Counted from the stretch's first letter, positions 6,894 to 33,351 are shown. The stretch is 60,764 nucleotides of DNA from an uncultured Clostridia bacterium (GCA_944386295.1 CALXAO010000013.1:1-60764); one strand, 5' to 3'. Notes: a model not told the origin generated them from the letters alone. Numbers and translations: made by a program.

Positions 6894-6897
6894 AGGA

Positions 6898-7302
6898 TTA
6901 CAGTCCTTTCCTTGTGTTTGTTAAAAAATATTTTTTCCAGAAGTGTAACGTTGTTCCGACGCCTAAACCTGCTGCCGGAAGCAGAAACAGTAAGCCAGGG
7001 TATGCAGGAAACAAGCAGAAAAACAGAATTCCTGCAGGAAATAGTAGCAAAGAAAATCCTCCGCTGATGCCGCAGAGAATCCGGCTTAGCCGTCGGCCCG
7101 CCGACAGCTTTACTGTAGCCAACCAAAGAATAAAATATAGTCCAAACTGGATGGTCAGCAGGGGAAAAAGTCCGAAAAGAAGTAATTCCAGCAGAGATAA
7201 AGACTGCTCGGTTGCAGCTAGGCCAATAAGACCAAATACGCCGTATCCAATCCAGCACATGGGACAAAGCCATCGAGCGGCAGCATTTAAAATCCGGTTC
7301 AC
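6898..7302 (-). CDS. Hypothetical membrane protein (about 4 TM)
   Basis: Hydrophobic 134 aa ORF; ATGA overlap with the aconitase stop; fills the gap to icd. Confidence 0.6.
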   Translation of the reverse strand: MNRILNAAARWLCPMCWIGYGVFGLIGLAATEQSLSLLELLLFGLFPLLTIQFGLYFILWLATVKLSAGRRLSRILCGISGGFSLLLFPAGILFFCLFPAYPGLLFLLPAAGLGVGTTLHFWKKYFLTNTRKGL

Positions 7303-9218
7303 TGTTCCCGGGTGGCGTTGAGCAGGCCTCCGGCCAAAAGCATTTTAATCTGTCGGTCGGAAAAGTTTGTTGCCAGGGAAAATTCAATTCCCTTGGTTTC
7401 GTTTCTCAATACCAAAGATTGTTTTTCCGTCAGCCGCTGGCGCAGTTCGGGCAAAGTTAAAGTGTCGCCTTGATCAATCTTGTCATAATCGGCTTCGTTT
7501 GCAAAAGTCAAGGGTAGAATTCCAGAATTAATCAGGTTTGCAGCGTGAATCCGAGCAAAGGATTTGGCGATAACCGCCTTAACTCCCAGATACAGGGGTA
7601 CCAGGGCTGCATGTTCCCTGCTGGATCCTTGACCGTAGTTTTGGCCGCCGATGACAAACCCTCCGCCCCATTCCTTTGCCCGAGCGGGAAATTCTTTATC
7701 GCAGACAGCAAAACAGAATTGGGACAGATAGGGAATATTGGATCGGAAAGGAAGAATTTTTGCACCTGCGGGCATAATATGGTCAGTAGTAATATTGTCT
7801 CCGACTTTTAACACTGCCCGAGCTTGCAATTCTTCCGGAAGGGCTGTGTTCAGGGGAAAGGGTTTGATGTTTGGCCCATAAACTACCGTTACATCTGTCC
7901 CGTCAGCCAGCGGGGGAATAATCATGTTGTCGTTCACGTCGAATTTTTTCGGCAGAGTTACCTTTATTTCTACATCCAAAGTCCGAGGATCAGTAAAGAC
8001 ACCAGAAAGGGCAGAGGCCACTGCTGTTTCCGGGCTGACTAAGTAAATTTGTCCGTCAGCGGTTCCGGAACGTCCCTCAAAGTTTCGATTAAATGTCCGC
8101 AGAGAAACGCCTTTGCTATTGGGGGCCTGTCCCATCCCAATACAAGGTCCGCAAGCGCATTCCAACACCCGGGCCCCGGCCGAAATAATATCGCTGAGGG
8201 CTCCGTTTTTAGCAAGCATGTCCAACACCTGCTTGGATCCGGGGGCAATAACCAGGGAAACGTCCGGGTGAACCGTTTTGCCCTGAAGAAGTTTTGCCAC
8301 TTTTAGCATATCTAACAGAGAAGAATTGGTGCAGGAGCCGATGCAGACCTGGTCAATTTTTTTTCCGGCCAAATCCGAAACAGGCTTAATGTTGTCAGGG
8401 CTGTGAGGACAGGCAGCCAGTGGTTCCAGTTGACTCAGGTCTAGATCAATGATACGATCGTATTCGGCGTCAGGATCAGCTTCCAGCGGAATAAATGCCG
8501 ATTCTCTGCCCTGGGCTGTCAAAAAAGCTGCCGTTACACTGTCAGCTGGGAAGACAGAAGTTGTTGCCCCCAGTTCCGCTCCCATGTTTGTGATAGTTGC
8601 CCGTTCGGGCACCGATAGAGAGGATATATCGCCTCCGTATTCAATAATGCAGCCTACACCGCCCTTGACCGACAAAATTTCAAGAACCTTGAGAATCACA
8701 TCCTTTGCGCTGACCATAGGACGCAGGCGTCCTTTTAAGTTGATCTTAATAACCCGGGGCATGGTCAGATAAAAGCCTCCCCCCCCCATGGCTACCGCTA
8801 CATCCAATCCGCCAGCGCCGATGGCCAACATACCAATGCCGCCGCCGGTGGGGGTGTGGGAATCGCTGCCAAGCAGTGTTTTCCCTGGGGCTCCAAAGCG
8901 CTCCAAATGTACCTGATGGCAGATTCCATTTCCAGGTCTGGAATAATACAACCCGTATTTTGCACAAGCAGTCCGGATAAACCGGTGGTCGTCAGCGTTT
9001 TCAAAACCGGTCTGCAGGGTGTTGTGATCGATATAGGCCACAGAACATTCGGTTCGTACCCGGGGAATACCAATAGCTTCAAACTGCAGATACGCCATGG
9101 TTCCTGTGGCGTCTTGGGTCAAAGTTTGGTCAATTCGGATGGAGATTTCTTCGCCTGCTTTCATTTCTCCGGAAAGCAGATGCTGTGAAATAATTTTTTG
9201 CGCAATGTTGTAACCCAT
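7299..9218 (-). CDS. Aconitate hydratase
   Basis: QDATGT, DHN, GSDSHT, IGSCTN, CGPCIG, TTDHI, GSSREHA; start taken at MGYNIAQK. Confidence 0.93.
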   Translation of the reverse strand: MGYNIAQKIISQHLLSGEMKAGEEISIRIDQTLTQDATGTMAYLQFEAIGIPRVRTECSVAYIDHNTLQTGFENADDHRFIRTACAKYGLYYSRPGNGICHQVHLERFGAPGKTLLGSDSHTPTGGGIGMLAIGAGGLDVAVAMGGGGFYLTMPRVIKINLKGRLRPMVSAKDVILKVLEILSVKGGVGCIIEYGGDISSLSVPERATITNMGAELGATTSVFPADSVTAAFLTAQGRESAFIPLEADPDAEYDRIIDLDLSQLEPLAACPHSPDNIKPVSDLAGKKIDQVCIGSCTNSSLLDMLKVAKLLQGKTVHPDVSLVIAPGSKQVLDMLAKNGALSDIISAGARVLECACGPCIGMGQAPNSKGVSLRTFNRNFEGRSGTADGQIYLVSPETAVASALSGVFTDPRTLDVEIKVTLPKKFDVNDNMIIPPLADGTDVTVVYGPNIKPFPLNTALPEELQARAVLKVGDNITTDHIMPAGAKILPFRSNIPYLSQFCFAVCDKEFPARAKEWGGGFVIGGQNYGQGSSREHAALVPLYLGVKAVIAKSFARIHAANLINSGILPLTFANEADYDKIDQGDTLTLPELRQRLTEKQSLVLRNETKGIEFSLATNFSDRQIKMLLAGGLLNATREQ

Positions 9219-9255
9219 GAAGCGTTCTCTTCCTTTTTTATTAAAATCAATATAT

Positions 9256-9284
9256 ATTATACTACATATTGAAAGATTTGTCAA
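9256..9284 (-). promoter_or_regulatory. Consensus sigma-A promoter of the aconitase operon
   Basis: TTGACA-17 bp-TATAAT on the minus strand. Confidence 0.85.
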
Positions 9285-19750: not shown

Positions 19751-21217
19751 ATGAAAATCTCCCAATTCAAAAAAATGTTCCAGAACCACCAGATTTTGGT
19801 GGGCGGAAACGCTCCCGACGGACTGGAAATTACCTCCCTGTGCTGTGATTCCCGGGATGCAATTCCAGGCAGCTTGTTTTTCTGTAAGGGGGCCAAGTTT
19901 CGTTTTGATTATCTGCAAAGGGCCGCGCAGGCCGGTGCCTGCGCCTATGTGTCAGAGGTGGATTATGGGCTTTTGCCCACGCTACTGGTTTCAGATATCC
20001 GAGCGGCCATGCCCCTGGCTGGAAAGGCGTTTGCTGGGGCACCTGATGAGAAGTTTCCCCTAATCGGAATTACCGGAACCAAGGGAAAAACCACCTGTGC
20101 CTATTTTCTACAGAGTATTTTGTCCCGCAAGTACGGTTTTCGGGTGGGGTTGATTTCTACAAACGAAGCCCTTTCCCTTGGACAGCGGCTGAAAAAATCT
20201 GGTACAACTCCCGAACCTTTGGAACTATACAGTCTGCTGGAACGCTTTGCTTCCGACCGAGTGGGGGCTGCGATAATGGAAGTGTCCTCCCAGGGGCTAC
20301 AGTACCGCCGGGTAGAGCATATTGATTTTGCAGTGGGTGTGTTTTTGAACCTATCCCCTGACCATATCAGCCCTACTGAGCATAAGGATTTTGAGGAATA
20401 TAAAGCCGCTAAACAAAAAATGCTGACGCTGTGCCGCGCTGGGGTAGTGAATCTGGATGACCCCTACAGCGGAGAAATTCTCCGATCGGCTACCTGCCGG
20501 CAGATACAGACGGTGTCCCTGATCGGTCCCGCCGACTGGACAGCCCGGGATATTCGGGGAACTCGCCAGGGTGTTTCCTTCCGAATCAATGGTCCAGGAT
20601 GTTCTTTTCCGGTGCATTTGTCGGCCGCTGGGGATTTCAATGTGTCTAACGCCCTTTGCGCTGCAGCTGCAGCTGCGGCGGTTGGGGGGACTCCGGAACA
20701 GATTCAGGAGGGACTGGAAGCTTCTGTAATTCCTGGCCGAATGGAGCAGTTTTCGGTGGCAGGAAGGCAGATTATTGTGGATTACGCTCACAACCGACTG
20801 AGCTTTGAAAAGATTTTCGAGTATACGTCCCAGTATTTCTCAGGGGTTTTCTGCACCGTTTTATTTGGTTGTCCTGGCAACAAGGCACCCGGCAGACGAA
20901 AAGACTTGCCTGAGGTAGCAGCTGCAAATGCTGATTTGATTATTCTGACTGACGATGACCCGGCGGATGAGGAACCTGAGGCTATTTTTCGGGAATGCGC
21001 AGCTGTGCTTGCTCTGTCTGATGTCCCTTATCGGATTATTCCCGATCGGCGGGAGGCTATTCTTGCTGCCATAGAAGCCACTCCGCCGGGCGGACTTGTG
21101 TTACTGTTGGGCAAAGGCCATGAGACTACCCAAATTGTTCGAGGCCGAGCTATAGAATACGGCGGTGATCGGAAATGCGCTCTGGGGGCTGTTGCTACTG
21201 TCTCCGTGGAATCATAA
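19751..21217 (+). CDS. murE: UDP-N-acetylmuramoyl-tripeptide synthetase
   Basis: DSR, GITGTKGKTT, TTP, MEVSS, DYAHN, GKGHE. Confidence 0.92.
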   Translation: MKISQFKKMFQNHQILVGGNAPDGLEITSLCCDSRDAIPGSLFFCKGAKFRFDYLQRAAQAGACAYVSEVDYGLLPTLLVSDIRAAMPLAGKAFAGAPDEKFPLIGITGTKGKTTCAYFLQSILSRKYGFRVGLISTNEALSLGQRLKKSGTTPEPLELYSLLERFASDRVGAAIMEVSSQGLQYRRVEHIDFAVGVFLNLSPDHISPTEHKDFEEYKAAKQKMLTLCRAGVVNLDDPYSGEILRSATCRQIQTVSLIGPADWTARDIRGTRQGVSFRINGPGCSFPVHLSAAGDFNVSNALCAAAAAAAVGGTPEQIQEGLEASVIPGRMEQFSVAGRQIIVDYAHNRLSFEKIFEYTSQYFSGVFCTVLFGCPGNKAPGRRKDLPEVAAANADLIILTDDDPADEEPEAIFRECAAVLALSDVPYRIIPDRREAILAAIEATPPGGLVLLLGKGHETTQIVRGRAIEYGGDRKCALGAVATVSVES

Positions 21218-21236
21218 TAGAAAGGATGTTATATAT

Positions 21237-21785
21237 ATGAAATTTCCCCATGTTTCCTTTCAGCCACTCCGGCGGCTGATTCATCCTGCATTTTTATATG
21301 ATACTTCCGATGACTCCCGGAAATGGCTGTGGCTTATTTGCCCATCCTTGTGCTTTGGTATTTTCTTTTTACATGCCGGGCTGGATCGGTTTCGAGTAGG
21401 TCTTTCGGGAGGACTGGGGGTCTTTTTCTGTGGATTGACCGGTTTGGTGGTGGGTGCGGCAGTGGCTCTGGTATTTGCGTTTTTGGCCTGGCTTTGCTGT
21501 CGGATATGCCGTCAGAAGCGGGCATTGTTGCGGCTGGTTTCTCCAGCCTGCGGAGTATTTCAGATTCCGCTGTTGTTACAAGTTTGTTCCCTATTGTTTG
21601 GCTTGCCCTTTGCTGTCCCTGCCGTATCGGCTTTTGGGCTGACGGCGCTGTTGTGGGCGCTGATTTTGATGATTGGTATGCTTCACGATTTGTTTGACCG
21701 TAAGCTGTGGCTTTCCTTGCCCTGTGTAACCCTGGCGGGGATTGTCCTGCTCAGTTCTTTGCAGCTGATTGTATTGTTTCGGTAG
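21237..21785 (+). CDS. Hypothetical 5-TM membrane protein (Yip1-like topology)
   Basis: RBS AAAGGA then ATG at 21237; five hydrophobic segments. Confidence 0.6.
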   Translation: MKFPHVSFQPLRRLIHPAFLYDTSDDSRKWLWLICPSLCFGIFFLHAGLDRFRVGLSGGLGVFFCGLTGLVVGAAVALVFAFLAWLCCRICRQKRALLRLVSPACGVFQIPLLLQVCSLLFGLPFAVPAVSAFGLTALLWALILMIGMLHDLFDRKLWLSLPCVTLAGIVLLSSLQLIVLFR

Positions 21786-21800
21786 AAAGAGGCCTGTTTT

Positions 21801-22211
21801 ATGAAATTTGATCGTTATATTTTAATTGGGATTCTATGTCTTTTGCCCTATGTCTGTGTGGGAGCATTTTTGACGGCCCCTTCCTTAGTCAACGTTTTTT
21901 CCTGGGTGTTTTTATCCCTTGCAGTGACGGCGGCCGATGTGGTTTGCTTTGATATGCTTTTGGCCAATCGCCGGAAAAACTGGTGTCTTCTTTTGCCTTT
22001 TACAGTATTGTTTCTTTATGCTCAGATTGTATTCCGGTGGAATGTTTTAATTCCCTTTTTTGTGACCGGGCAGTTTGCCTTGGGGATTTACACCACTACT
22101 GAAAGGGCCGAAACCCTGGGAAAATTGAAAGCGGCAAAACCTCTGTTGGTGGCCGGGGTTGTTGGGGTCCTAATGACTTGTGTTGTGATTTTGACGGGGG
22201 TGGGGGCGTGA
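21801..22211 (+). CDS. Hypothetical membrane protein
   Basis: 136 aa, 4-5 TM segments, AGAGG RBS. Confidence 0.65.
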   Translation: MKFDRYILIGILCLLPYVCVGAFLTAPSLVNVFSWVFLSLAVTAADVVCFDMLLANRRKNWCLLLPFTVLFLYAQIVFRWNVLIPFFVTGQFALGIYTTTERAETLGKLKAAKPLLVAGVVGVLMTCVVILTGVGA

Positions 22212-23383
22212 GAAAAGTTTGGACCGGTTCTTTACTCTTTCTCCTGACAGTGCTTTTTTTGTCTTTGATCGTGTCGGCCGACCCGGAACTTTGCTTTTGC
22301 GGTCGGGAATATTATGCGGTTACAGGCGATGGGCACAGCCAGTACGACTGTCGGGGTTGCGGCCAAAATTACCGATTCTGCAAATGCCATACCTGTTGGT
22401 GCGGAAAATCTCTGACGGTGCAGTCTGGAGAGAACGGGGAAATTCTTTCTATGATTTGCGATGGGTGCGGTCTTCCCGGAAGTAAATGTACTTGTGCGGA
22501 TCGGGAATATTATCATGCACTGCTAATGCTGGATCGGAATATCTGCGGTCCTGACCTTCCCAAAACCGGAGGGCTGCTTCTTCTGGCGGCAGCGATTTTG
22601 CCAGCCGGTCTGTTTTTTCTTTTGTTTTTACTGTTTCATCAGCGAAACGAATCTTTTGATGCTCAGGTCCGCGATATTGGACGTCTGAAGGTTGCCTTTA
22701 ATCAAATTGAGAAGCAAGAAGATGCTTTGTCCCGGTATCGGGTGGCGAAAAAGGCAGAGGAGCATAAGCGTCGGGATTTGGATGGTTCGCCTACGCCTAC
22801 TGATTGGAAAGAATGGAAGGCGCTTTGCTTTAAAAAGGATTCTCTTCTTCCGAGTGTGTTGAACGAGGAAACCTTCCGGGCCCGAACAGAGCAATTGCTT
22901 CAGGACTGTCTGACTGACAGCCGCCTTGCGCTATCCGGCGAACCCGATCTACCGGTAGATCTATGGTCTCAGTCCGGCACCTTTTCTCCGGAACGTCTTT
23001 CTTTGGGGGCTGCTACTCCGGCCGGAACTCTGCTGCGTTGGCCGGGGGCCTCATCGGAGGTTTGCCTATACCAAATAGCAGCTGCTTTATGTGGTCCGGA
23101 TACCTGCCGATTAGCTTACGGAACTGGGCGCACCGGGTTTTCCGGTGCTGTGTTTGAGCCATCGTTTAAGCTGCTGAAGAAAAAAGAGGACTGGCAGGCA
23201 CAAACAGCCGAATGTGAACACGCGTTGGCAGTCCTTGTTCCTGGAGGGGATCCGGAGCTTTTGAGTAAGCTTCCTCTCTGTTCCGGTGAATTTCCTGAGG
23301 AACCTGGTTTGCCTCCGGTGACGGAAAAGTACGCACCTGCCATTCTTCGTTTTGCACCTAGCGGAAAGGAGGGGGACCTATGA
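22208..23383 (+). CDS. Hypothetical protein: signal peptide, tandem Cys-rich repeats, LPKTG plus TM, cytoplasmic domain
   Basis: GTG overlapping the upstream TGA; architecture read from the translation. Confidence 0.7.
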   Translation: MRKVWTGSLLFLLTVLFLSLIVSADPELCFCGREYYAVTGDGHSQYDCRGCGQNYRFCKCHTCWCGKSLTVQSGENGEILSMICDGCGLPGSKCTCADREYYHALLMLDRNICGPDLPKTGGLLLLAAAILPAGLFFLLFLLFHQRNESFDAQVRDIGRLKVAFNQIEKQEDALSRYRVAKKAEEHKRRDLDGSPTPTDWKEWKALCFKKDSLLPSVLNEETFRARTEQLLQDCLTDSRLALSGEPDLPVDLWSQSGTFSPERLSLGAATPAGTLLRWPGASSEVCLYQIAAALCGPDTCRLAYGTGRTGFSGAVFEPSFKLLKKKEDWQAQTAECEHALAVLVPGGDPELLSKLPLCSGEFPEEPGLPPVTEKYAPAILRFAPSGKEGDL

Positions 23384-24264
23384 GATATCTGTTTTCTACC
23401 CGGGAGCTTGTGGCGTTTTTATCTCGTTCTGAAACACCTTGTTCCCCCCATTCTCTCTTTGAACCCCTATCCCGGTTGCCCTTGTCAGAACCATTAACGC
23501 CGCCTTTGACCGAAGAAAACGGTTTGACAGCTGAGGGCCGGTTGCTGGAGCGGTTTTTGCTGGACCCCGATCGGGTATTCTTGTTGGGGCGGCAGGCAGC
23601 GGCTGATGGAACGATTTATGCCTTACGCAAAGAGGGGTTGTTCTGCTTGTATACCTATCTGCGCAGACAGGATTTTCATGTATTTTTTCTGTATCTGGAT
23701 GTGAAGCGATTGGCAGATGCCCTTCCTGGCCTTTTATATAGTTTTTATACCCCCGATCTGTATGTATCCACCTCCCTGGCCTGTATGCTTACCTTGCCAG
23801 AATACGCGGCTTTGCAGCTCTGTTGCATGGTTTTGAATTTGCGGCCCACACCTTTGTCGGCTTTGGAGCCCATTACCTTAGATCAATTACGGGGAGAAAA
23901 TCTGTCTCTGTATCTGTCGAATTTCCTTGAGGAAGCTGGCCGCCGAGAAGGTGCCGCAAGGGTTTGCGAGCTGCAGGCTGGCCCGGCATTGGAAACTGCG
24001 TTAACCGGATTGCTGGAAAAAGGACTGCTTCTTCCTCTGGCCGGAGACAGTCATCAGATTTCTTATCTGCCTTCGCCTTTGTTTATCGACTGGCTCGATC
24101 AGGGGCTGACTCTGGATACCGTTTACTGCCGGGAATCTGTGTCTGGTCGGGAACGTCTTTTTGCACTGCGCCGCCCGGGCATTACACAGATTGCTCCTGA
24201 TGGAGAAAGCGTGACTCTTTGTTCGGTTTCCGCCCCTGACTGGGAAAAAATTTTATCGGAATAA
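23380..24264 (+). CDS. Hypothetical soluble protein
   Basis: 294 aa; GGAGGGGG RBS; ATGA coupling. Confidence 0.7.
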   Translation: MRYLFSTRELVAFLSRSETPCSPHSLFEPLSRLPLSEPLTPPLTEENGLTAEGRLLERFLLDPDRVFLLGRQAAADGTIYALRKEGLFCLYTYLRRQDFHVFFLYLDVKRLADALPGLLYSFYTPDLYVSTSLACMLTLPEYAALQLCCMVLNLRPTPLSALEPITLDQLRGENLSLYLSNFLEEAGRREGAARVCELQAGPALETALTGLLEKGLLLPLAGDSHQISYLPSPLFIDWLDQGLTLDTVYCRESVSGRERLFALRRPGITQIAPDGESVTLCSVSAPDWEKILSE

Positions 24265-24291: not shown

Positions 24292-24579
24292 ATGAAAGAA
24301 AAATTTAAGGAACTGTCCCAATGGCTGACTGCGGCACGGGAGATGCTGCGGCAATTGCCCAAGATTTTCAAAAAAAAGACTCCGGTGCCGGAAAAGCAAA
24401 GCAAAGGTACCGTGGCGGCGCTGATATTTGCTGCTGTCGGGATTCTGTTTTCCTTGGTATCAGTTGCAGCGTTGGTATTTTGTAAGCTGCGGAACTGGAG
24501 GAACCGCTGCCCGGAAGAGTCTTTGCCGGGCTACGAGACTGATCCGGACGCTGATGAATATGAGGATACTGAGGAATAA
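24292..24579 (+). CDS. Hypothetical single-TM protein with acidic tail
   Basis: GGAGG RBS before MKEKF; one TM segment. Confidence 0.55.
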   Translation: MKEKFKELSQWLTAAREMLRQLPKIFKKKTPVPEKQSKGTVAALIFAAVGILFSLVSVAALVFCKLRNWRNRCPEESLPGYETDPDADEYEDTEE

Positions 24580-24625
24580 AAAGCATTGGCCGGCCAGAGA
24601 CCCCCCCTGGTCGGCCAATTGTTTT
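24578..24625. terminator. Bidirectional terminator between convergent operons
   Basis: ATTGGCCGGCCAG ... CTGGTCGGCCAAT with A and T tails. Confidence 0.75.
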
Positions 24626-26261
24626 ATTCTGTTTTTCGCAAACGAAAGCGTTGAATTTTACCCGAGTCTGTTTTAGGAAGTACCGGAACATATTCAATTA
24701 TCCGGGGATATTTGTAGGAGGCAGTGGATTCCTTAACAAATTTTTGCAGTTGGCGTGTTAAATTCCGGGTACCTTCATAGCCTGGCTGTAAAACGACGGT
24801 GGCCTTGATGGCAAAGCCTCGTTCGGCGTCAGGTATGCCGGTAACGGCGCATTCAAAAACTGCTGGGTGCTGTATCAGCACATTTTCTACCTCAAAGGGA
24901 CTAATTCTGTATCCGCAGGATTTAATAACATCATCGGTCCGACCTACATACCAGATGTAACCATCTTTGTCCTGATAAGCAAGGTCCCGGGTATGATACA
25001 TGCCATTTTTCCAAATTTCCTCTGTAGCTTCTGGATCTTTATCATAATGATCCATCAGTCCAAAATTTCCTGCCGGATTTGGCAAAATAACGATTTCTCC
25101 TGTCTCACCTTGGGGGACTGGTTGACCTTCTTCGTCCACAATCTGAACCCTGTAAAGGGGTGAGGGTTTTCCCATAGATCCTTCTCTGGATTTTTCTCCC
25201 TGGAAATTTCCAATAATCAGGGTTGTTTCAGTTTGACCATAGCCTTCTTTGATTTCCAGTCCCGTGTGCTCCTGAAATTTTCGAAAAATGTCCGGATTAA
25301 GAGCTTCTCCGGCGGTAGAAACCGAGTGAAGGGTGGAAAAATTATAGTTTTTAAGGCCACTTTTTACCAAAAACCGGTAAAATGTCGGTGGCGCACAAAA
25401 AGAACATACCTTGTAGTTTGCTGCTACTTCCAGCAGATCTCCAGGGTTAAAGTTAATGTAATCGTACACCAACACCGCACTTCCGCAGAGCCACTGGCCG
25501 TAAATTTTTCCCCAGGAGGCCTTCGCCCAACCGGTGTCTGCGACGCTGAGGTGAACTCCGTTATTTTCTGTATTTTGCCAGTATTTTGCAGTGGGGATGT
25601 GTCCCAGAGGATAGCCGTAATTGTGAACGACTGCTTTGGGATATCCGGTGGTTCCGGAGGTAAAATACATTATCATTGGGTCGGTACTAGGAATGACCTT
25701 GCGGGAAAATTTATCGGATTCCTTCTCCATGCCGGTATCCAGACGCAAAAATCCGGGACAATCCTGCCGCACGGTAAATTTCTGTTCCAAACCGCATTTT
25801 GCAGAGGCTGCCGTAACAGCTCCGGTCACCTCTGAGTCCTCCGTGCAGACAATGGCTTTGATTGAAGCCGACTGAATCCGATAAATCAGGTCTTCTTCAC
25901 GGAGCATATAAGACGCCGGAATAGCAACAGCACCTATGCGGTGCAAGGCAAGAAGCGTATACCAATATTCAAAATGCCGTCGGAGAAGAAGGAGGACCCG
26001 ATCACCTCGACGGATTCCCTGTTTTGTCAGATAGTTGGCTGCCTGTGCTGATGCCTTGCTCATATAAAGGAAGGAAAAAATCTCTTCCCGTCCCTTGTGA
26101 TCTCGCCAGATAAGCGCCGTTTTGTCTGGTTCCTGCTGGGCAATTACATCCACTACGTCATTTGCAAAATTAAAATATTTCGGTACATGAAGGGAAAAAG
26201 ATCGGATACAGCCCTTTTCGTCCAGTTCTTCGCTGCAATAGTTTAAATAAAGAGGTTTCAT
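24624..26261 (-). CDS. AMP-forming short/medium-chain acyl-CoA synthetase
   Basis: YFTSGTTGYPK, EGYGQTE, GRTDDVIKS, PKTDSGKI. Confidence 0.9.
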   Translation of the reverse strand: MKPLYLNYCSEELDEKGCIRSFSLHVPKYFNFANDVVDVIAQQEPDKTALIWRDHKGREEIFSFLYMSKASAQAANYLTKQGIRRGDRVLLLLRRHFEYWYTLLALHRIGAVAIPASYMLREEDLIYRIQSASIKAIVCTEDSEVTGAVTAASAKCGLEQKFTVRQDCPGFLRLDTGMEKESDKFSRKVIPSTDPMIMYFTSGTTGYPKAVVHNYGYPLGHIPTAKYWQNTENNGVHLSVADTGWAKASWGKIYGQWLCGSAVLVYDYINFNPGDLLEVAANYKVCSFCAPPTFYRFLVKSGLKNYNFSTLHSVSTAGEALNPDIFRKFQEHTGLEIKEGYGQTETTLIIGNFQGEKSREGSMGKPSPLYRVQIVDEEGQPVPQGETGEIVILPNPAGNFGLMDHYDKDPEATEEIWKNGMYHTRDLAYQDKDGYIWYVGRTDDVIKSCGYRISPFEVENVLIQHPAVFECAVTGIPDAERGFAIKATVVLQPGYEGTRNLTRQLQKFVKESTASYKYPRIIEYVPVLPKTDSGKIQRFRLRKTE

Positions 26262-27055
26262 TAAGCTTCCCCGTTTTCCGTGAAAATTCCGATTTTACGG
26301 AACCTCTGATATCGTTCTTCCAGCATTTGTCCAATGGGTTTGGACAGCAGCTCTGACAAATCCTGCAAATACCGGTTTTTTATTTGCTCACACATTTGGG
26401 GAAACCGGTCAAATGTCTCGGGAAATACTGCTTCTGCTACACCGAAGCGGAGCATATCCTCTGCCGTAATGTGCAGACAATCTGCTGCCTGCTCTACTTT
26501 GGCGGAATCCTTCCAAAGAATACTGGCGCATCCCTCGGGGGAAATTACAGAATATACTGCATTTTCCAACATATAAACCCGATCTGCCACGCCCAAGGCT
26601 AAAGCCCCTCCGCTCCCCCCTTCGCCGATAACGGTCGTGAGTATTGGTACTGTCAAACCTGCCATTTCCAGCAAATTTTCCGCAATGGCCAATCCCTGTC
26701 CCCGTTCTTCTGCATCAGCGCCGCAAAAGGCTCCTAGGGTGTCTACGAAGCAAAGCACCGGCCGACCAAATTTTTCGGCTTGTTTCATCAGTCGCAGGGC
26801 CTTTCGGTAGCCTTCCGGTTTGGGACAACCAAAGTTTCGAGCCAGTCGATCCTGTAAATCCTGCCCTTTTTCAATAGCCAAAAAGGTAACTGGAAGCCGC
26901 TCCAAATATCCAATTCCTCCCAGAATAGCTCCGTCCTCTCCATACCTCCGGTCTCCGTGTAGGAAAACCTGCTCGGTAAACAAGCTGTCAATATAGGCTC
27001 GGCCTGTGGGACGTCCGGTGGTTCGGGCAATTCGGAGTTTTTCGTAGGCGGTCAT
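26261..27055 (-). CDS. accA: Acetyl-CoA carboxylase carboxyltransferase alpha
   Basis: LHGDR, PEGYRKA, AEERGQ, GEGGSGGA, SVISPEGCA. Confidence 0.92.
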   Translation of the reverse strand: MTAYEKLRIARTTGRPTGRAYIDSLFTEQVFLHGDRRYGEDGAILGGIGYLERLPVTFLAIEKGQDLQDRLARNFGCPKPEGYRKALRLMKQAEKFGRPVLCFVDTLGAFCGADAEERGQGLAIAENLLEMAGLTVPILTTVIGEGGSGGALALGVADRVYMLENAVYSVISPEGCASILWKDSAKVEQAADCLHITAEDMLRFGVAEAVFPETFDRFPQMCEQIKNRYLQDLSELLSKPIGQMLEERYQRFRKIGIFTENGEA

Positions 27056-27876
27056 ATTCTCACCTCTCTGTTGTGCATTCGAAGCAGCAAAGCTATGGTC
27101 TCTTTTAGCTTGCTTCGGGAAACAATTTCATCCACAAAGCCATGCTGAAGCAAAAATTCCGACCGCTGAAAATCTTTTGGCAGATTGCTTCCGGTGGTTT
27201 GTTCCACTACCCTCCGTCCGGCAAAGCCGACCAAGGCGCCCGGTTCCGCTAAAATAATGTCGCCCTGCATGGCAAAACTTGCCGTTACGCCTCCGGTGGT
27301 AGGGTCTGTAAGCACTGTCAGATATAAATTCCCCGCATCGCTGTGTCTCCGTACCGCTGCGCTGACCTTAGCCATTTGCATTAGGGACACAATTCCTTCC
27401 TGCATTCGAGCACCCCCCGAGGCGGTAAACCCAAGGACCGGCAGCTGATGTTCCAGCGCGTATTCAAAGGCCCGGGTAATTTTTTCACCCACTACCGATC
27501 CCATACTTGCCATAATAAAATCTGGCTCCATGGCAAAAATTACACAGGGGTTTCCCTTAATTTTTGCTGTGCCGCAAACCACTGCGTCTTTTTCTCCGGT
27601 GGTATTTTCTGCTTCCCAGAGTTTTTGTGCATAGTTTGGAAATTGCAAAAAGTCCTGGCTGCTCAGATTCGGGCTGATTTCCTGAAAGGTTTTTTCGTCC
27701 GCAATCCATTGAATTCTCCGTCTTCCTCCAAATCGAAGATATTTTCCGCAGGAAGAGCAAAGATAGTCGTTTTTCCGTGCGACCTTGGCTGGAATTTCTG
27801 TTTTGCAGGATTTGCAGATTAAAGGTGCTTCGTCCTTTCCGGACAGCTTAGACAGCAGGTTAGTCAGAAACTTCAT
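27052..27876 (-). CDS. accD: Acetyl-CoA carboxylase carboxyltransferase beta
   Basis: C4 zinc finger, SMGSVVGE, SGGARMQEG, DPTTGGV, GFAGRRV. Confidence 0.92.
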   Translation of the reverse strand: MKFLTNLLSKLSGKDEAPLICKSCKTEIPAKVARKNDYLCSSCGKYLRFGGRRRIQWIADEKTFQEISPNLSSQDFLQFPNYAQKLWEAENTTGEKDAVVCGTAKIKGNPCVIFAMEPDFIMASMGSVVGEKITRAFEYALEHQLPVLGFTASGGARMQEGIVSLMQMAKVSAAVRRHSDAGNLYLTVLTDPTTGGVTASFAMQGDIILAEPGALVGFAGRRVVEQTTGSNLPKDFQRSEFLLQHGFVDEIVSRSKLKETIALLLRMHNREVRI

Positions 27877-28304
27877 TCTGCAGCCTCCTTTTGCTCCGGT
27901 ACTAGCGCAAAGGAAAATTCTGCCTTAACACAAAGGGCGCCGTTAACTTTCCCCTTTGCTGAAGCAAAATAAAACTGACCCATGGTCCGTTCAATACGGC
28001 ATTCGGTTTCAAATACATCTCCTATCGTTACCGGACGCTTAAAGCGTACTTTGTCCAAGCCGGTAAAGAAAGGCAGGGTTTTTCCTGTGGTCTGCCCCAA
28101 CAGTACACAGGCGGATTGTGCCATAATTTCGCATAAAATAACCCCTGGAACCACTGGACGGCCAGGAAAATGTCCTTTAAGGAACCATTCTTCTCCGGTA
28201 ATGGTCTTTTTGCCGTGGGCAATTTCGTCTATTACCTCAGCCTCATCAATAAGAAGCATATTATCCCGGTGAGGAAGGATTTTTTTGATTTCTTCCTGAT
28301 TCAT
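27873..28304 (-). CDS. fabZ: 3-hydroxyacyl-ACP dehydratase
   Basis: LPHR, GHFPG.PVVPGV, E.MAQ; start MNQEEI. Confidence 0.92.
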   Translation of the reverse strand: MNQEEIKKILPHRDNMLLIDEAEVIDEIAHGKKTITGEEWFLKGHFPGRPVVPGVILCEIMAQSACVLLGQTTGKTLPFFTGLDKVRFKRPVTIGDVFETECRIERTMGQFYFASAKGKVNGALCVKAEFSFALVPEQKEAAE

Positions 28305-28314
28305 AGCTTTCTCC

Positions 28315-29541
28315 TTACAGTGTCCGGAAAGCAATGCAGGTGTCATGACCTCCAAAGCCCAGAGAGGTGGAAATGGCTCCCCGAATTTCCGTGTAAACCG
28401 CCTTAAGCGGGGTGTAATTCAGGTCGCATTCCTCATCCGGTTCTAACAAGTTAATGGTGGGGGGAACAACTCCTTTTTTCAGAGTAAACAAACACGCGAT
28501 GGCCTCTGCTGCTCCGGCCGCACCCAGCATATGTCCGGTCATGGACTTAGTAGAGCTGATATGCAATCGGTATGCATCCTGTCCAAAAGCTCTCTTAAAA
28601 GCAGTGGTTTCGGTGATATCGTTGAGATGCGTTCCTGTACCGTGAGCATTTACGTAAAGGGTTTCCGCTGGTACATCTCCCATGTTCTGCATTGCCTGGC
28701 GAATAGCCCGGATGGTACAGGTTGCTTCCGGATCAGGTGCGGTAATGTGATGTGCATCGCAGGCAGCACCGTAACCGCACACTTCTGCGTAAATTTTTGC
28801 ACCCCGGGCCTTTGCGTGTTCATATTCTTCCAGAATCAGAGTTGCTGCGCCTTCCCCGATAACAAATCCGCCCCGGCGTTTGTCAAAGGGTAAGGAGGCT
28901 GCGTTTTTGTCTTCTGCTGCGGACAATGCCATACAGTTGCCGAACCCGGCTACCGTCAAGGGAACAATGGCGGCTTCCGATCCTCCGCAGATAATGGCCT
29001 TAGCATATCCGTGGCAAATGGCACGATAGGCTTCACCGATGGCAGTAGTGCCGGTAGCGCAAGCGGTAGACAGTGCTAGGGAAGAGCCTTTGGCATGAAA
29101 CCGGATGGCAATATTTCCTGCTGCAATATTCATAATCATTTTCGGTACAAATTGAGGTGAAACATAGTTTGCACCATTTTCCAGATTTGCTTGATCTTCC
29201 TTACAAAGTGTCTGAATTCCCCCAATGCCGGTTCCGTAATAAACGCCTAGGTCTTCGTCAGCAATCTGTCCCTCCAGGCCGCTGTCATTCATTGCTTCCT
29301 GGGAAGCTATCAGCGCGTACTGTACAAAGGGGTCTGTTTTCCGGGCCGCTGCCTTGCCCAGCAACGTTGCTACATCCAGGCCCTTGACCTCTGCGCCCAT
29401 TTTAAACCGTGATTCGCTTATATCAAAGCGGGAAATAGTGTCAATTCCGTTTACACCTGCTTCCAGGGCAGCCCAGTATTCCGGAACATTATTTCCGATA
29501 GGGGTTACCGCCCCAATGCCGGTTACTACAACTCGATTCAT
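28315..29541 (-). CDS. fabF: Beta-ketoacyl-ACP synthase II
   Basis: TACA, HGTGT, KSMTGHMLGAAG, GFGG. Confidence 0.93.
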   Translation of the reverse strand: MNRVVVTGIGAVTPIGNNVPEYWAALEAGVNGIDTISRFDISESRFKMGAEVKGLDVATLLGKAAARKTDPFVQYALIASQEAMNDSGLEGQIADEDLGVYYGTGIGGIQTLCKEDQANLENGANYVSPQFVPKMIMNIAAGNIAIRFHAKGSSLALSTACATGTTAIGEAYRAICHGYAKAIICGGSEAAIVPLTVAGFGNCMALSAAEDKNAASLPFDKRRGGFVIGEGAATLILEEYEHAKARGAKIYAEVCGYGAACDAHHITAPDPEATCTIRAIRQAMQNMGDVPAETLYVNAHGTGTHLNDITETTAFKRAFGQDAYRLHISSTKSMTGHMLGAAGAAEAIACLFTLKKGVVPPTINLLEPDEECDLNYTPLKAVYTEIRGAISTSLGFGGHDTCIAFRTL

Positions 29542-29552
29542 GCTGTTTCCTC

Positions 29553-30275
29553 CTACATTGCAATTCCGCCATCAATGCGGATTACTTCTCCGGTAATATA
29601 ATTGGCATTTTCCGACGCCAAAAATGCTACAAGCCGGGCGACTTCCCATGCTTCTCCCATTCTCCGCAAGGGAATGTTCTTAGCAATGACGTCAGCATCA
29701 AATCCGGCGGTCATGTCTGTACGGATAAAGCCGGGTGCAATAGCGTTGCAGGTAATGCCTCGGGAGGCTAGTTCTTTGGCTATGGACTTTGTGAGTCCTA
29801 TGATTCCTGCTTTTGAGGCCGAATAGTTTGTCTGACCGGCGTTTCCCATTAGTCCCGATACGGAACTGACATTCACAATTTTTCCCTGCTTTTTCCGGAG
29901 AAAGACCGGATAAAGCAATTTAATCATATGAAAGGCGCCTTTCAAATTTACATCTACCACTGCGTCAAAATCCTCCGGAGACATGGCCAGAACTAATTTA
30001 TCCCGGGTAATTCCGGCATTGTTAACCAAAATGTCCACCGTACCAAAGTCGGCTAATACCTGCTTGACAGTCTTTTCGCACTGGGTATAATCGGCGACAT
30101 CGCATACATATGCTTTGGCGTTCGTTCCCAACGCTTCCAGCGTTTCCTTGGCGCGTTCCGGCTCGCCTACATATAAAAAGGCAACGCTGGCCCCTTGTGC
30201 GGCAAAAGTTTCACAGATTGACCGTCCAATGCCCTGACTTCCACCTGTGACCAATACGGTTTTTCCTTCAAACAT
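29553..30275 (-). CDS. fabG: 3-oxoacyl-ACP reductase
   Basis: TGGSQGIG, NNAGITRD, YSASK. Confidence 0.93.
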   Translation of the reverse strand: MFEGKTVLVTGGSQGIGRSICETFAAQGASVAFLYVGEPERAKETLEALGTNAKAYVCDVADYTQCEKTVKQVLADFGTVDILVNNAGITRDKLVLAMSPEDFDAVVDVNLKGAFHMIKLLYPVFLRKKQGKIVNVSSVSGLMGNAGQTNYSASKAGIIGLTKSIAKELASRGITCNAIAPGFIRTDMTAGFDADVIAKNIPLRRMGEAWEVARLVAFLASENANYITGEVIRIDGGIAM

Positions 30276-31188
30276 GGCTTAAAACCTCCTGTCCAATCGC
30301 CGCTGCTTCTTCTGCTGTTTCCACAGCATAAATCAAAGCATCGGGCAGGGTTTTCTGAATTAATTTTTTCAGCGTGGTACCTACGCCGGTTTCAATAAAG
30401 ATGTCAAAGCCCTCTTTTGCTAACCGGCGAATTGTATTTTCCCACTGAACCGGATGGTTCATCTGCCGGGTCAAAAGGCTTGCGATGTCTTCCGTATAGG
30501 GTTGCGCTGTGCAGTTGGAATAGACTGGAATTTCCGGCATGCGCAGATTTTTTTGCTGTAAAAAAGTACCGAAAGCTTCCGCTGCGTCATTCATATAGGG
30601 GGAATGAAATGCACCGCTAACCGCCAAAGGCACAGCGCGACCTCCGGCTTGACGTACTGCGACAGAAAACGCTTCCAAAGAGTCTTTGGCTCCCGATACT
30701 ACCAATTGGCCCGGACAGTTATAATTCACCGGATAAACCCGGTCAAATTGCTGGGCCAACGTTTCCACCGCAGCATTTTCCATTTTTACCACTGCTACCA
30801 TTCCAGTGTCGGCTTGTCGGTTGGCTTCTCCCATGAGCTGCCCCCTACGACAGACGATGGAAAAGCCTTCTTCTAGGGAAAAGGCTCCACCAAAGGCTAG
30901 GGCCGCTATTTCTCCTAAGGAAAATCCGGCCAGAGCTTGAGGTACGATTCCCTCCTCTTCCAGAGCTATTGCTGCTGCTAAATCAGCTAAATACAGGCAA
31001 GGCTGAGTATTTTCGGTTTGTTTTAGTTCTTCCTGCGTTCCCCGTAAACATTGCTCTGTGGTTCCCGGACGAATCCGGTCAGCCGCAGCAAACAGGTCTG
31101 CAACACGGTCATATCGTTCAATCAGGTCCTGGGCCATTCCAGGATGCTGAGCCCCTTGACCGGAAAAAACAAAAGCTATTTTACCCAT
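30268..31188 (-). CDS. fabD: Malonyl-CoA:ACP transacylase
   Basis: GQGAQ, GFSLGE, AFHS. Confidence 0.93.
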   Translation of the reverse strand: MGKIAFVFSGQGAQHPGMAQDLIERYDRVADLFAAADRIRPGTTEQCLRGTQEELKQTENTQPCLYLADLAAAIALEEEGIVPQALAGFSLGEIAALAFGGAFSLEEGFSIVCRRGQLMGEANRQADTGMVAVVKMENAAVETLAQQFDRVYPVNYNCPGQLVVSGAKDSLEAFSVAVRQAGGRAVPLAVSGAFHSPYMNDAAEAFGTFLQQKNLRMPEIPVYSNCTAQPYTEDIASLLTRQMNHPVQWENTIRRLAKEGFDIFIETGVGTTLKKLIQKTLPDALIYAVETAEEAAAIGQEVLSHV

Positions 31189-32126
31189 AGGGATGCTCCT
31201 TTCAGCAATATTTCTGCTTCTTCTGTTACCTGACGAATAATTTCTGCTGCCGGCATCTCTTCCCGAACCAGACCGGAAATCTGTCCGGCCAGAAGACAGC
31301 CATTTTTTACATCGCCCTCTATAGCTGCCCGCCGCAACGATCCTACGCCAAGTTCAGCGATATCTTCCGCTGTGGTTTCGGGTAAATATTCGGTTTTTAA
31401 AAAATTACGGGTAAAGGTATTTTTAATACAACGGCAGGTATTTCCGCCAAACCGGCGGCCGGTAGTCACGGTGGAAATGTCGCCTGCCTTCAGCACTGCC
31501 TGCTTGTATGCGGGATGAACGCTGCATTCACAGGCGACTAAAAACCGGGTTCCCATTTGAACCCCCTGGGCTCCCAGCATCATGGCGGCCGCCATGCCTC
31601 TACCGTCTGCAATACCGCCTGCGGCTAAAACAGGAATAGACACCGCATCACAAACTTGAGGGACAATTGCCATTGTCGTCAGTTCTCCAATATGGCCGCC
31701 GGACTCCTGCCCCTCAGCAATCACCGCCGCAGCTCCCGCATCCTGAGCCATCTTAGCCATAGCGACTGAGGCGACAACCGGAATGACAGTAATGCCTGCT
31801 TCCAGCCATTGGGGCATGTATTGGGTGGGGCGCCCTGCGCCGGTAGTTACAACCGCCACTTTTTCCTCTGCTACGAGTGCGGCAACTTCTGCGACATGCG
31901 GACTCATGAGCATAATATTTACACCAAAAGGCTTATCGGTCAGATTTCGAGCCGTCCGGATCTGCTCCCGCAGATAGTTTTTATCAGCGTTCATGGCTGA
32001 AATAATTCCTAGGCCGCCTCCTTCCGAGACGGCCGCCGCCAATTTTCCATCCGAAATCCAGGCCATACCGCCTTGGAAGATCGGATACCGGATGCCCAGT
32101 AAATCACAAATTTGGGAAGAAATCAT
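31176..32126 (-). CDS. fabK: Enoyl-ACP reductase FabK
   Basis: QGGMAW, ESGGH, AAGGI, QMGTRF; in fab operon. Confidence 0.9.
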   Translation of the reverse strand: MISSQICDLLGIRYPIFQGGMAWISDGKLAAAVSEGGGLGIISAMNADKNYLREQIRTARNLTDKPFGVNIMLMSPHVAEVAALVAEEKVAVVTTGAGRPTQYMPQWLEAGITVIPVVASVAMAKMAQDAGAAAVIAEGQESGGHIGELTTMAIVPQVCDAVSIPVLAAGGIADGRGMAAAMMLGAQGVQMGTRFLVACECSVHPAYKQAVLKAGDISTVTTGRRFGGNTCRCIKNTFTRNFLKTEYLPETTAEDIAELGVGSLRRAAIEGDVKNGCLLAGQISGLVREEMPAAEIIRQVTEEAEILLKGASLWVK

Positions 32127-32133
32127 ACGTTTT

Positions 32134-32355
32134 TCACGCTTTCAGTGCATCAAGCTTCGCAACGATGTCCCCAACTGTTTTTAACGATCCATCCATTTCC
32201 AACTTGACGCCAAACTCATTTTCCAGATTCAGTACCAATTCGGCAATATCCAAAGAGTCAATTCCCAGGTCGCTCAATGCCGTTTCGGTTGTGATTTCAG
32301 AGGCCTCCATATCGGAAATTTCAGAAATCATTTCTGCAACTTTTTCCAGTGTCAT
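32134..32355 (-). CDS. acpP: Acyl carrier protein
   Basis: Acidic 73 aa; LGIDSLD phosphopantetheine site. Confidence 0.93.
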   Translation of the reverse strand: MTLEKVAEMISEISDMEASEITTETALSDLGIDSLDIAELVLNLENEFGVKLEMDGSLKTVGDIVAKLDALKA

Positions 32356-32404
32356 AATAAAAAATCCTCCTGCTATTTTGGTAAAATTTTGGTATTCATT
32401 CTTT

Positions 32405-32433
32405 TAGTGTACCTCTTTTGGAAAAAGGTTACA
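32405..32433 (-). promoter_or_regulatory. Putative ECF-sigma promoter upstream of acpP
   Basis: TGTAACC-16 bp-ACACTA on the minus strand; AAC core typical of ECF -35 elements. Confidence 0.5.
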
Positions 32434-32528
32434 CCGAATTTGAAAAAAATTTTAATCTTATCGGGTATTCATTCAAAGAAATGACACGAATATCGACTAT
32501 TATATAATTTAAAGAAGGGAGTGTGCGG

Positions 32529-33044
32529 ATGAAAGAGTTTGAAGAAATTTATAGGGAGAACTATTCTTTTATTTACGGCTTTCTCCGCAAGCTTTGCGGA
32601 AATCGGGAATTGGCAGAGGAACTGTCGGGGGAAACCTTTTATCAGGCTTTCCGGTCTTTTCGGAAATTCCGAGGCGAAAGCAAAGTATCTACTTGGCTGA
32701 CGGCTATCGCAAAACATGTGTATTATCACTATTTAAAATCGCACCGTCTTTCTTTGGATACCATCAGCTTAGATACCGTCGAAGATGTTTTGGCTGGGAA
32801 TTCTCTGCCGACCGCAGGGCCAGAGATCGGATTGCTTCAGGAGGAACAGCGGCAGGCGCTGCGGCGGACGCTTCGAAAACTTCCCGACAAATACCGGGAT
32901 GTAGTACTCCTGCGGATCTATGCCGATCTTCCCTTTGCAGAGGTGGCGGCTGCTCTGAAAATTAGTGAAAATTCTGCAAAAGTAATTTATTGTCGGGCAA
33001 AAAAAATGTTATCGGAGGAATTGAAGCATGAATTTGACTTGTGA
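32529..33044 (+). CDS. ECF RNA polymerase sigma factor
   Basis: Region 2 AEEL..ETF, TWLTAIA; region 4 LPDKYR..EVA..L. Confidence 0.92.
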   Translation: MKEFEEIYRENYSFIYGFLRKLCGNRELAEELSGETFYQAFRSFRKFRGESKVSTWLTAIAKHVYYHYLKSHRLSLDTISLDTVEDVLAGNSLPTAGPEIGLLQEEQRQALRRTLRKLPDKYRDVVLLRIYADLPFAEVAAALKISENSAKVIYCRAKKMLSEELKHEFDL

Positions 33045-33351
33045 TACTGTGATGGATCTGTTTCCTTTATATTATGACGGCCTAGCCAGCCAGTCCAGTC
33101 GGGAGGCCATTCGCCGCCATCTTCGGACATGTCCTTCTTGCCGGGAGTTTGTTCACCGGTATCGGGAAACTGCTAGTCATCCGGCCCCCTGTGGGTCGGA
33201 GTCTCTTCCTGATTTTGACCAGGGGTACCGGAATTTGGCTGACCGTTTGAAACGGCGGCATATCATTAAGACCTCCGCCTTTTCCTTTGTCTTAGCTGTC
33301 TGTCTGGCTACTTTGGCCGCCAGTTTTTTTCTTAAACGAAACGGACGGTAA
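33028..33351 (+). CDS. zf-HC2 (ZAS) anti-sigma factor, single TM
   Basis: CDTVMDLFPLY.D, HLRTCPSC; C-terminal TM with almost no extracellular domain. Confidence 0.88.
   Translation: MNLTCDTVMDLFPLYYDGLASQSSREAIRRHLRTCPSCREFVHRYRETASHPAPCGSESLPDFDQGYRNLADRLKRRHIIKTSAFSFVLAVCLATLAASFFLKRNGR

Follow-up and report, generated by a model that had tools for sequence, protein, structure and literature searches.

A clostridial fab operon lacking accB, accC and fabH, with an acyl-CoA synthetase gene coupled to accA

The fatty-acid synthesis (fab) operon described here lies on a 60,764-nt stretch of DNA from an uncultured Clostridia bacterium of the chicken gut (the window), which is contig C13 of a draft genome (G000) of 200 contigs and 2.39 Mb with a completeness of 93.3%. 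The operon occupies the minus strand from 32355 to 24624 and comprises nine genes in the order acpP-fabK-fabD-fabG-fabF-fabZ-accD-accA-ACS, the last of which encodes an AMP-forming acyl-CoA synthetase (ACS). The gene order and the absence of accB, accC and fabH, first claimed from the sequence, were confirmed and are not an assembly artefact. Our comparative analyses indicate that the operon is a recurrent and conserved clostridial fab variant combining two separable changes, one in the biotin-dependent supply of malonyl-CoA and the other in chain initiation. In particular, the carboxyltransferase subunits AccD and AccA (AccDA) most likely take carboxybiotin from the carrier of an oxaloacetate decarboxylase, and the synthetase probably supplies starter acyl units.

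Gene content and junctions of the operon

Scans with NCBIfam and Pfam recovered the genes, in the same order, that an earlier note on this DNA had proposed. The operon and its upstream border are as follows:

32134..32355, minus strand: acpP, acyl carrier protein (ACP), 73 aa; PF00550, 47 bits; NCBIfam ACP models, 60 bits, under their cut-offs
31176..32126, minus strand: fabK, FMN enoyl-ACP reductase, 316 aa; TIGR03151, 433 bits (cut-off 453)
30268..31188, minus strand: fabD, malonyl-CoA:ACP transacylase, 306 aa; TIGR00128, 258.5 bits (cut-off 260.9); PF00698
29553..30275, minus strand: fabG, 3-oxoacyl-ACP reductase, 240 aa; TIGR01830, 305 bits, above the cut-off of 298
28315..29541, minus strand: fabF, KAS II, 408 aa; TIGR03150, 529 bits, above the cut-off of 494
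27873..28304, minus strand: fabZ, 3-hydroxyacyl-ACP dehydratase, 143 aa, beginning with the ATG at 28304; NF000582, 112.7 bits (cut-off 113)
27052..27876, minus strand: accD, carboxyltransferase beta with a Cys4 zinc ribbon, 274 aa; TIGR00515, 324 bits, above the cut-off of 317
26261..27055, minus strand: accA, carboxyltransferase alpha, 264 aa; TIGR00513, 324 bits, above the cut-off of 319; PF03255, 349 bits
24624..26261, minus strand: ACS, MacS/MbcS-like AMP-forming acyl-CoA synthetase, 545 aa; PF00501 and PF13193
32356..32522, no strand: AT-rich intergenic region of 167 bp, from acpP to the divergent sigma gene, read from the sequence
32523..33351, plus strand: extracytoplasmic function (ECF) sigma factor (173 aa) and zf-HC2 anti-sigma factor (107 aa), divergent; TIGR02937, 94.5 bits; PF13490

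AccD, AccA, FabG and FabF scored above the NCBIfam equivalog cut-offs, with FabK, FabD and FabZ slightly and AcpP somewhat under them. The FabK of the window shares 75% identity with its counterparts in three relatives, G023, G140 and G251.

The junctions are as seamless as the earlier note had described them. The fabF stop codon TAA is followed by 10 nt containing GGAG and then by the fabZ start codon, fabZ and accD overlap in ATGA, and accA and ACS overlap in TAATG. As these junctions are so tight, the operon has no space for accB or accC, and as only 167 bp separate acpP from the divergent ECF sigma gene, there is no fabH upstream of acpP. The critical junctions were all bridged by contigs of other chicken-gut studies: those of X2 span 24300-30084 with 0 differences, and those of X3 span 27557-30806 and 30807-32700. 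Near-identical DNA is present in chicken-gut metagenomes, 10 runs of which contain half or more of the sampled words.

The common order in clostridia and streptococci is fabH-acpP-fabK-fabD-fabG-fabF-accB-fabZ-accC-accD-accA, which is present in complete form in five relatives (G058, G062, G078, G111 and G238). The operon of the window is built from the same families in the same order; in contrast to the canonical cluster, both the operon and its genome are without fabH, accB and accC, and accA is followed by a synthetase gene coupled to its stop codon. No description of this arrangement was found among open-access papers.

Recurrence and history of the accBC loss

Copies of accB, accC or fabH elsewhere in the genome had been named as the finding that would speak against a real loss, and neither profile searches nor tblastn found any in the 93.3% complete assembly. 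The fabH model TIGR00747 and the C-terminal KASIII domain PF08541 had no match in the whole assembly, and the sole match to the ketoacyl synthase domain PF00109 was the FabF of the operon, which is thus the only condensing enzyme found. For accC, the best matches in the assembly were ATP-grasp domains of at most 72 bits (cut-off 626) in CarB-sized frames, and tblastn of the assembly with the FabH of G023 and the AccB and AccC of G001 revealed no relic. The search suggested for birA was positive, and that for other biotinyl domains yielded a single one by profile search, within the oxaloacetate decarboxylase (Oad) cluster treated below.

To place these absences, 251 genomes of the same order, from 30 GTDB families, were examined by profile searches. 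Matches to accD were found in 121 of them, to biotin carboxylase also in 121, and to fabH in 101. The 130 genomes in which accD was not found include three that are 100% complete (G007, G036 and G037), and much of the order seems to be without fatty-acid synthesis altogether. Six of the 121 accD-bearing genomes had no biotin carboxylase match, and five were kept after inspection: G000, G023, G140 (99% complete, 9 contigs), G229 (97%) and G251 (98%). The sixth, G187 (60% complete), has an accC remnant at a contig end and was rejected as an ordinary case. The architecture therefore recurs, with fabF-fabZ-accD-accA uninterrupted in all five accBC-less genomes. The order in G251 is identical to that of the window; G023 has a fabH added upstream and also the linked ACS; and neither G140 nor G229 has an ACS after accA. 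G140 is also without fabH, although it carries unlinked ACS paralogs, and fabH is retained in two of the five genomes.

It is extremely unlikely that the three genes merely lie in the unassembled ~7% of the genome or were hidden by a mis-joined contig, an explanation that is largely refuted. The assembly is admittedly a draft, and two other seeming absences proved to be contig-end effects (G187, and fabH-less G107/G108). However, the tight, independently bridged junctions leave no room for the genes, tblastn showed no relic, the same accBC-less order without biotin carboxylase occurs in the four other genomes, and fabH was not found in closed G254 or in G042 (100% complete) either.

A tree of 15 operons, inferred from concatenated FabK, FabD, FabG, FabF, AccD and AccA (IQ-TREE, LG+G4, quick search), placed the five accBC-less operons in one clade (SH-aLRT 87; inner four 100), sister (98) to a clade that bears accB and accC, has the linked ACS and is without fabH. 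A single loss of accB and accC would be the simplest history. The operon clades cut across GTDB families, pointing to transfer or patchy loss. In addition, paths in the accBC-less clade amount to 0.7-1.0 changes per site, so AccDA was retained long after the loss of accB and accC.

The gene upstream of accD was also recorded for 80 metagenomic relatives of AccD: it was accC in 47, fabZ in 7, fabD in 2 and fabF in 1, with no upstream gene within 400 bp in 9 and a contig end leaving the neighbour undetermined in 14. Four metagenome contigs (L107, L114, L130 and L141) carry fabZ-accD-accA-fabH, in two cases (L107 and L141) with fabG-fabF upstream. In none of them does accC precede accD, those that include fabF are also without accB, and fabH occupies the position that the ACS has in the window.

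AccD and AccA as a carboxyltransferase

AccD and AccA of the five accBC-less genomes were aligned with those of 24 accBC-bearing relatives (29 sequences). AccD has 60 invariant positions, including C21, C24, C40 and C43 of the zinc ribbon and both GG motifs, and a single position specific to the accBC-less set (Y46 versus H); AccA has 45 invariant positions and no group-specific change. Identity between AccD and AccA of the window and those of the accBC-less relatives is 55-67%, in line with the other fab proteins. The motifs reported as intact in the earlier note are thus invariant in proteins that also exceed their family cut-offs, and nothing in the alignments points to decay of AccDA or to a changed role.

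The earlier note had also raised the possibility that AccDA works without biotin in the manner of MdcD/MdcE and makes the primer by malonyl decarboxylation. In this reading, malonyl-CoA or malonyl-ACP would be decarboxylated to an acetyl primer, and the malonyl groups would come from elsewhere, for instance from malonate that the ACS activates. A cell without fabH would benefit from a decarboxylase that forms primers, and AccD and AccA are distantly homologous to the two Mdc proteins (TIGR03133, 64 bits; TIGR03134, 28 bits). However, these scores are far under the Mdc cut-offs (278 and 237), in proteins that exceed the AccD and AccA cut-offs, and the one change in AccD and none in AccA argue against altered function. 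Furthermore, two of the five accBC-less genomes retain fabH and two are without the linked ACS, and MbcS, to which the ACS has its best NCBIfam match, was inactive on short dicarboxylic acids in the portion of the report available (PMC10026030). This reading is accordingly disfavoured, and we regard it as very unlikely.

The source of carboxybiotin

The sole biotin carrier of G000 is a 128-aa MmdC-like biotin carboxyl carrier protein (BCCP; 125 bits, cut-off 200) encoded on contig C125. It belongs to a cluster consisting of a 467-aa 12S-like carboxyltransferase, an OadG-like open reading frame (ORF), the BCCP, OadB (TIGR01109, 507 bits) and OadA (NF008985, 765.6 bits, above the cut-off of 718). 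The cluster hence holds the beta, alpha and carrier parts of a Na+-translocating oxaloacetate decarboxylase, plus a gamma-like ORF with a weak score (28 bits, cut-off 36). As an AccB-type BCCP the carrier reaches 55.5 bits against TIGR00531 (cut-off 115), and it has neither the N-terminal domain nor the thumb. All five accBC-less genomes have one small BCCP each, always adjoining oadB and oadA, whereas in accBC-bearing relatives AccB is present as a second carrier besides that of Oad. By elimination, since no other carrier was found in the accBC-less genomes, AccDA would have to use the Oad carrier.

The 12S-like acyl-CoA carboxyltransferase (L010:2391-3794 on C125), which heads the Oad cluster, scores 346 bits against the mmdA model (cut-off 999). 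It recurs in G023, G001 and G251 and is not beside the carrier in G140 and G229.

Among the possibilities offered in the earlier note, a transcarboxylase role for AccDA, with the carrier charged by oxaloacetate decarboxylase, fits these data best. AccDA, OadA and BCCP are all present in G000, in which no biotin carboxylase was found. In the proposed route, the ancestor of a small operon clade would have lost accB and accC cleanly and kept AccD and AccA unaltered; either OadA, using oxaloacetate, or the OadB pump, working in reverse, would charge the thumb-less BCCP, and AccDA would take carboxybiotin from the charged carrier. The net reaction would be oxaloacetate + acetyl-CoA -> pyruvate + malonyl-CoA, with no ATP. 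We consider such an ATP-free oxaloacetate:acetyl-CoA transcarboxylation somewhat better than an even proposition.

Several known systems resemble this proposal in part. The transcarboxylase of Entamoeba histolytica is one fused chain. Its net reaction is the one proposed here for AccDA and OadA; in contrast, AccDA, OadA and the carrier in G000 are, as read from the genes alone, separate proteins encoded at two loci, with the carrier shared with a sodium pump. In the sections of the literature available, the Entamoeba enzyme, which has an orthologue in Mastigamoeba, is reported to provide a route by which oxaloacetate and acetyl-CoA yield malonyl-CoA, and the Propionibacterium transcarboxylase is stated to catalyse the oxaloacetate:acetyl-CoA reaction as well (PMC8085960). 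The Propionibacterium enzyme, methylmalonyl-CoA carboxytransferase (12S/5S/1.3S, EC 2.1.3.1), likewise works without a biotin carboxylase and with a thumb-less carrier, but its acyl-CoA subunit is of the 12S type, while AccD/AccA would take that part here and G000 has the 12S-like protein of the Oad cluster in addition. With the OadGAB/Mmd sodium pumps, G000 shares OadB, OadA and an MmdC-like carrier of the same families; the differences are that its carrier is a separate protein rather than the tail of OadA and that, under the proposal, its carboxybiotin would also serve AccDA. Compared with the heteromeric AccABCD, AccD and AccA are present above their cut-offs, without AccC and without an AccB-type BCCP.

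Carrier docking was modelled with AccD, AccA and residues 55-128 of the BCCP, each with its own alignment. The ipSAE was 0.56, against 0.29 for the best of three controls, which the tool rates as 'weak support'; contact agreement between runs was at least 100%, and the partner pLDDT was at least 87. Among the calibration cases, 116 of 157 solved complexes reached the mark, as did 2 of 215 mismatches; values of at most 0.60 account for only 18 of the 157 solved complexes and for both mismatches. Complexes of BCCP with carboxyltransferases have already been solved, so the pass may merely reflect likeness to them.

A number of observations weigh against the transcarboxylation proposal, beginning with the weak and generic character of this docking support. 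The Oad carrier is without the AccB N-terminal domain and the thumb of ~8 residues, and a comparison of carriers showed no AccB-like change in the Oad carrier of the accBC-less genomes. According to the part of PMC11926652 available, mutations of thumb residues disrupt the function of the Escherichia coli BCCP; pointing the other way, the BCCP domain of human ACC2 is also thumb-less. The parts are neither fused nor co-encoded, with accDA on C13 and BCCP-oadB-oadA on C125. OadB is widespread, occurring in 181 of the 251 genomes of the order and in 14/14, 14/14 and 12/13 genomes of the three families concerned; its co-occurrence was therefore dropped as evidence and is treated as a necessary condition only. 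Finally, ATP-type phosphoenolpyruvate carboxykinase (PEPCK; PF01293), considered as a source of oxaloacetate at no ATP cost, was rejected as such, since G000 has no match and, of the five accBC-less genomes, just one does; GTP-type PEPCK, phosphoenolpyruvate (PEP) carboxylase and citrate lyase were not included in that search.

In a variant of the same idea, OadB would run in reverse on the sodium gradient and make carboxybiotin, replacing biotin carboxylase for the carboxylation of both pyruvate and acetyl-CoA. Sodium pumps were reportedly reversed in vitro to carboxylate pyruvate and acetyl-CoA by Dimroth and Hilpert in 1984. The variant would suit genomes of which four of five have no ATP-type PEPCK match and none a biotin carboxylase match, and a window carrying genes for aconitase and isocitrate dehydrogenase, which need oxaloacetate-derived citrate. 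However, other sources of oxaloacetate (aspartate transamination as well as the three enzymes named above) lay outside the search, and we judge the variant distinctly unlikely. The two citrate-cycle genes, at 5736-9284 on the minus strand of the window, are a feature of the genome in their own right, in view of the lack of a detected biotin carboxylase or ATP-type PEPCK.

The linked synthetase and chain initiation

The best NCBIfam match of the ACS is MbcS (NF047394), at 454 bits and thus below the cut-off of 850. Its residues 20-543 align with PDB entry 3ETC (604 bits), and this alignment contains the core adenylate-forming (ANL) motifs. We take 3ETC to be MacS of Methanosarcina acetivorans, a synthetase preferring 2-methylbutyrate, although the PDB title reads only 'AMP-binding protein'. 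Staphylococcus aureus MbcS and 3ETC are of the same family as the window ACS, which differs from MbcS in its score under the cut-off, in belonging to a fab-operon-specific orthogroup and in that the products of MbcS go to FabH, which is absent here.

The linkage of the ACS to the operon, which the earlier note had proposed to check, is conserved: in the order sample, 19 genomes have an ACS directly after accA, and a twentieth case is G014, which belongs to the relatives sample and has no fabH match. These 20 operons, all with the ACS translationally coupled to accA, come from at least 10 GTDB families. When the 20 linked sequences were compared with 20 unlinked paralogs, the two sets were split at one branch (SH-aLRT 99), and the linked set mirrors the operon tree. 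The linked ACS thus appears as a distinct, fab-specific orthogroup, whose origin is separate from and older than the accBC loss. Seven positions are specific to the linked ACS, and these do not tell CoA from ACP as the acceptor. A contig search with the window ACS returned only two loci, that of G023 and a Desulfovibrio match of 26% identity. Unlinked MacS-like paralogs were observed in G035, G012, G001, G026, G140 and G229 (L070, L071, L072, L074, L076 and L078); their open frames are 772-799 aa long, with ~240 extra N-terminal residues.

In 23 of the 121 accD-bearing genomes fabH was not found, and in 18 of these the ACS directly follows accA. The other five are G140, which has no linked ACS; G232, in which two fabF paralogs follow accA; G184, whose contig is truncated; and G107 and G108, whose contigs end within accA. 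Conversely, 18 of the 19 genomes with the linked ACS have no fabH match, including G254 and G042, and G023 alone has both. Among 12 fabH-bearing operons checked for an ACS downstream, one had it; the other 86 fabH-bearing genomes were left out of this check, and G200 was undetermined. The operon tree implies a single gain of the ACS and roughly three losses of fabH among ACS-bearing lineages. The near-exclusion of the linked ACS and fabH is therefore real, as judged from these comparisons, and it rests on few independent events; the losses of fabH and of accB and accC would be separate events of different age. In G232 (L052), fabF is not in its usual place, and two fabF paralogs, with 54% and 41% identity to the window FabF, follow accA; this arrangement may be another way to dispense with FabH.

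The suggestion that the ACS bypasses FabH or acetyl-CoA carboxylase (ACC) held up in its first half, given the 18 of 19 linked genomes without fabH, from which we infer a bypass of FabH. An ACC bypass does not agree with the data: 16 of the 19 linked operons retain accB and accC, and two of the five accBC-less operons are without the linked ACS, so the ACS cannot serve that role. In the history that we propose, the common ancestor of the accBC-less clade and its larger, accBC-bearing sister clade would have gained a MacS/MbcS-like gene at the operon's end before accB and accC were lost, and fabH would then have been lost repeatedly. The ACS would activate short, probably branched, gut acids as starter units, with FabF admitting them to elongation in the form of acyl-CoA or after direct loading onto ACP. 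That the ACS supplies starter acyl units is in our opinion about evenly balanced. In S. aureus, external 2-methylbutyrate and isobutyrate become primers of type II fatty-acid synthesis (FASII) through activation by MbcS, and the resulting acyl-CoA is used by FabH, according to the accessible part of PMC10026030. A more specific version, in which the sodium-pump decarboxylase is the carboxyl donor of AccDA, its separate thumb-less carrier moving between OadA/OadB and AccDA, and the ACS is a short-chain acyl-ACP synthetase that loads gut acids onto ACP in place of FabH throughout a group of operons, appears doubtful.

It is also possible, though we think it unlikely, that the ACS is not a starter enzyme at all. 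FabF may decarboxylate malonyl-ACP, or Fak/PlsX may provide acyl-ACP from imported acids, and the ACS may make acyl-CoA for other purposes, for example in the salvage of branched amino acids, its place in the operon being convenient for regulation. Several facts weigh against starter supply, and those on G140, the paralogs, PlsX and FakB also fit this alternative. The related operons reduce the 18 of 19 to only about three independent fabH losses, the known MbcS primers are used by the missing FabH, G140 has neither fabH nor a linked ACS whereas G023 has both, and MacS-like paralogs are common, being carried by 36 of 41 relatives, among them genomes that lack FASII. All five fabH-less genomes tested have PlsX, and four of them, including G000, have a DegV/FakB-like protein; these could supply acyl-ACP primers. 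In the parts of the respective reports available, Enterococcus faecalis elongates external short and medium acids through FakAB (PMC11586512), deletion of its fabH does not fully block synthesis (PMC13372179), and FabB of Pseudomonas putida can initiate synthesis (PMC10869286). However, the fab-linked orthogroup has been kept and coupled to accA in the 20 operons, tracks the operon tree and is nearly exclusive with fabH (fabH in 1 of 19 linked genomes; ACS in 1 of 12 fabH-bearing operons), which argues against this alternative. Known FabH-independent initiation by MadA/YiiD, P. putida FabB or E. faecalis FakAB likewise proceeds without KAS III, and the available portions of those papers do not mention an operon synthetase (PMC8666670, PMC10869286, PMC11586512). 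The YiiD_C domain of the MadA/YiiD-type malonyl-ACP decarboxylase was not found in any of the five fabH-less genomes, whereas the E. coli control was matched.

Taken together, we infer both biochemical routes from the gene content, recurrence, conservation and phylogeny observed here. The proposals of transcarboxylation and of starter supply, jointly and as stated, stand at even balance, and the joint estimate is not lower because the two share most of their support.

Genomic surroundings and expression

The operon is embedded in core chromosome, with jag, yidC, mnmE/G, parAB, serS, secA, ruvABC and murE in the neighbourhood. A divergent ECF sigma gene adjoins the fab operon both in the window and in G023 (L015:1592-2128, minus strand), where the order is ECF sigma, fabH and acpP, with fabH in the position corresponding to the 167-bp gap of the window. 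The ECF sigma factor could regulate the fab operon. A promoter scan gave 9 candidates against a shuffle mean of 10.0, and a terminator scan gave 17 against 12.4, without an excess in either case; the promoter-like match in the gap between acpP and the sigma gene was not better than those in shuffled sequence, and an Rfam scan of the window had no match. The RNA run X19 covers a small share of the stretch; its contigs here are all short and fall on fabD and fabK/acpP and also downstream of the ACS.

Four ORFs in a row (206, 136, 401 and 294 aa; 21165-24264, plus strand) follow murE and are convergent with the ACS. None of the four has a Pfam match, and those of 401 and 294 aa are also without an NCBIfam match. 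At the other end, an ORF of 1856 aa with RHS repeats (PF05593) extends from 55098 to 60668 on the plus strand, nearly to the end of the window.

Implications

Acetyl-CoA carboxylase and FabH, both of them antibiotic targets, are treated as the committed and the initiating step of fatty-acid synthesis in bacteria. Transcarboxylase-type synthesis of malonyl-CoA and MbcS-type primer supply are known kinds of reaction; what is new is their variant here, and no new category is proposed. That a lineage keeps the pathway without the ATP-dependent half of the carboxylase points to energy-saving transcarboxylation in strict anaerobes, in which case malonyl-CoA would be made at no ATP cost, and the loss of FabH points to a starter route that would tie the synthesis of membrane lipids to the short-chain acids of the gut. 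As the genome of G254, fabH-less and ACS-linked, is closed, a cultured strain may exist. As a further caution, metabolic models based on 'ACC present or absent' will misjudge such organisms.

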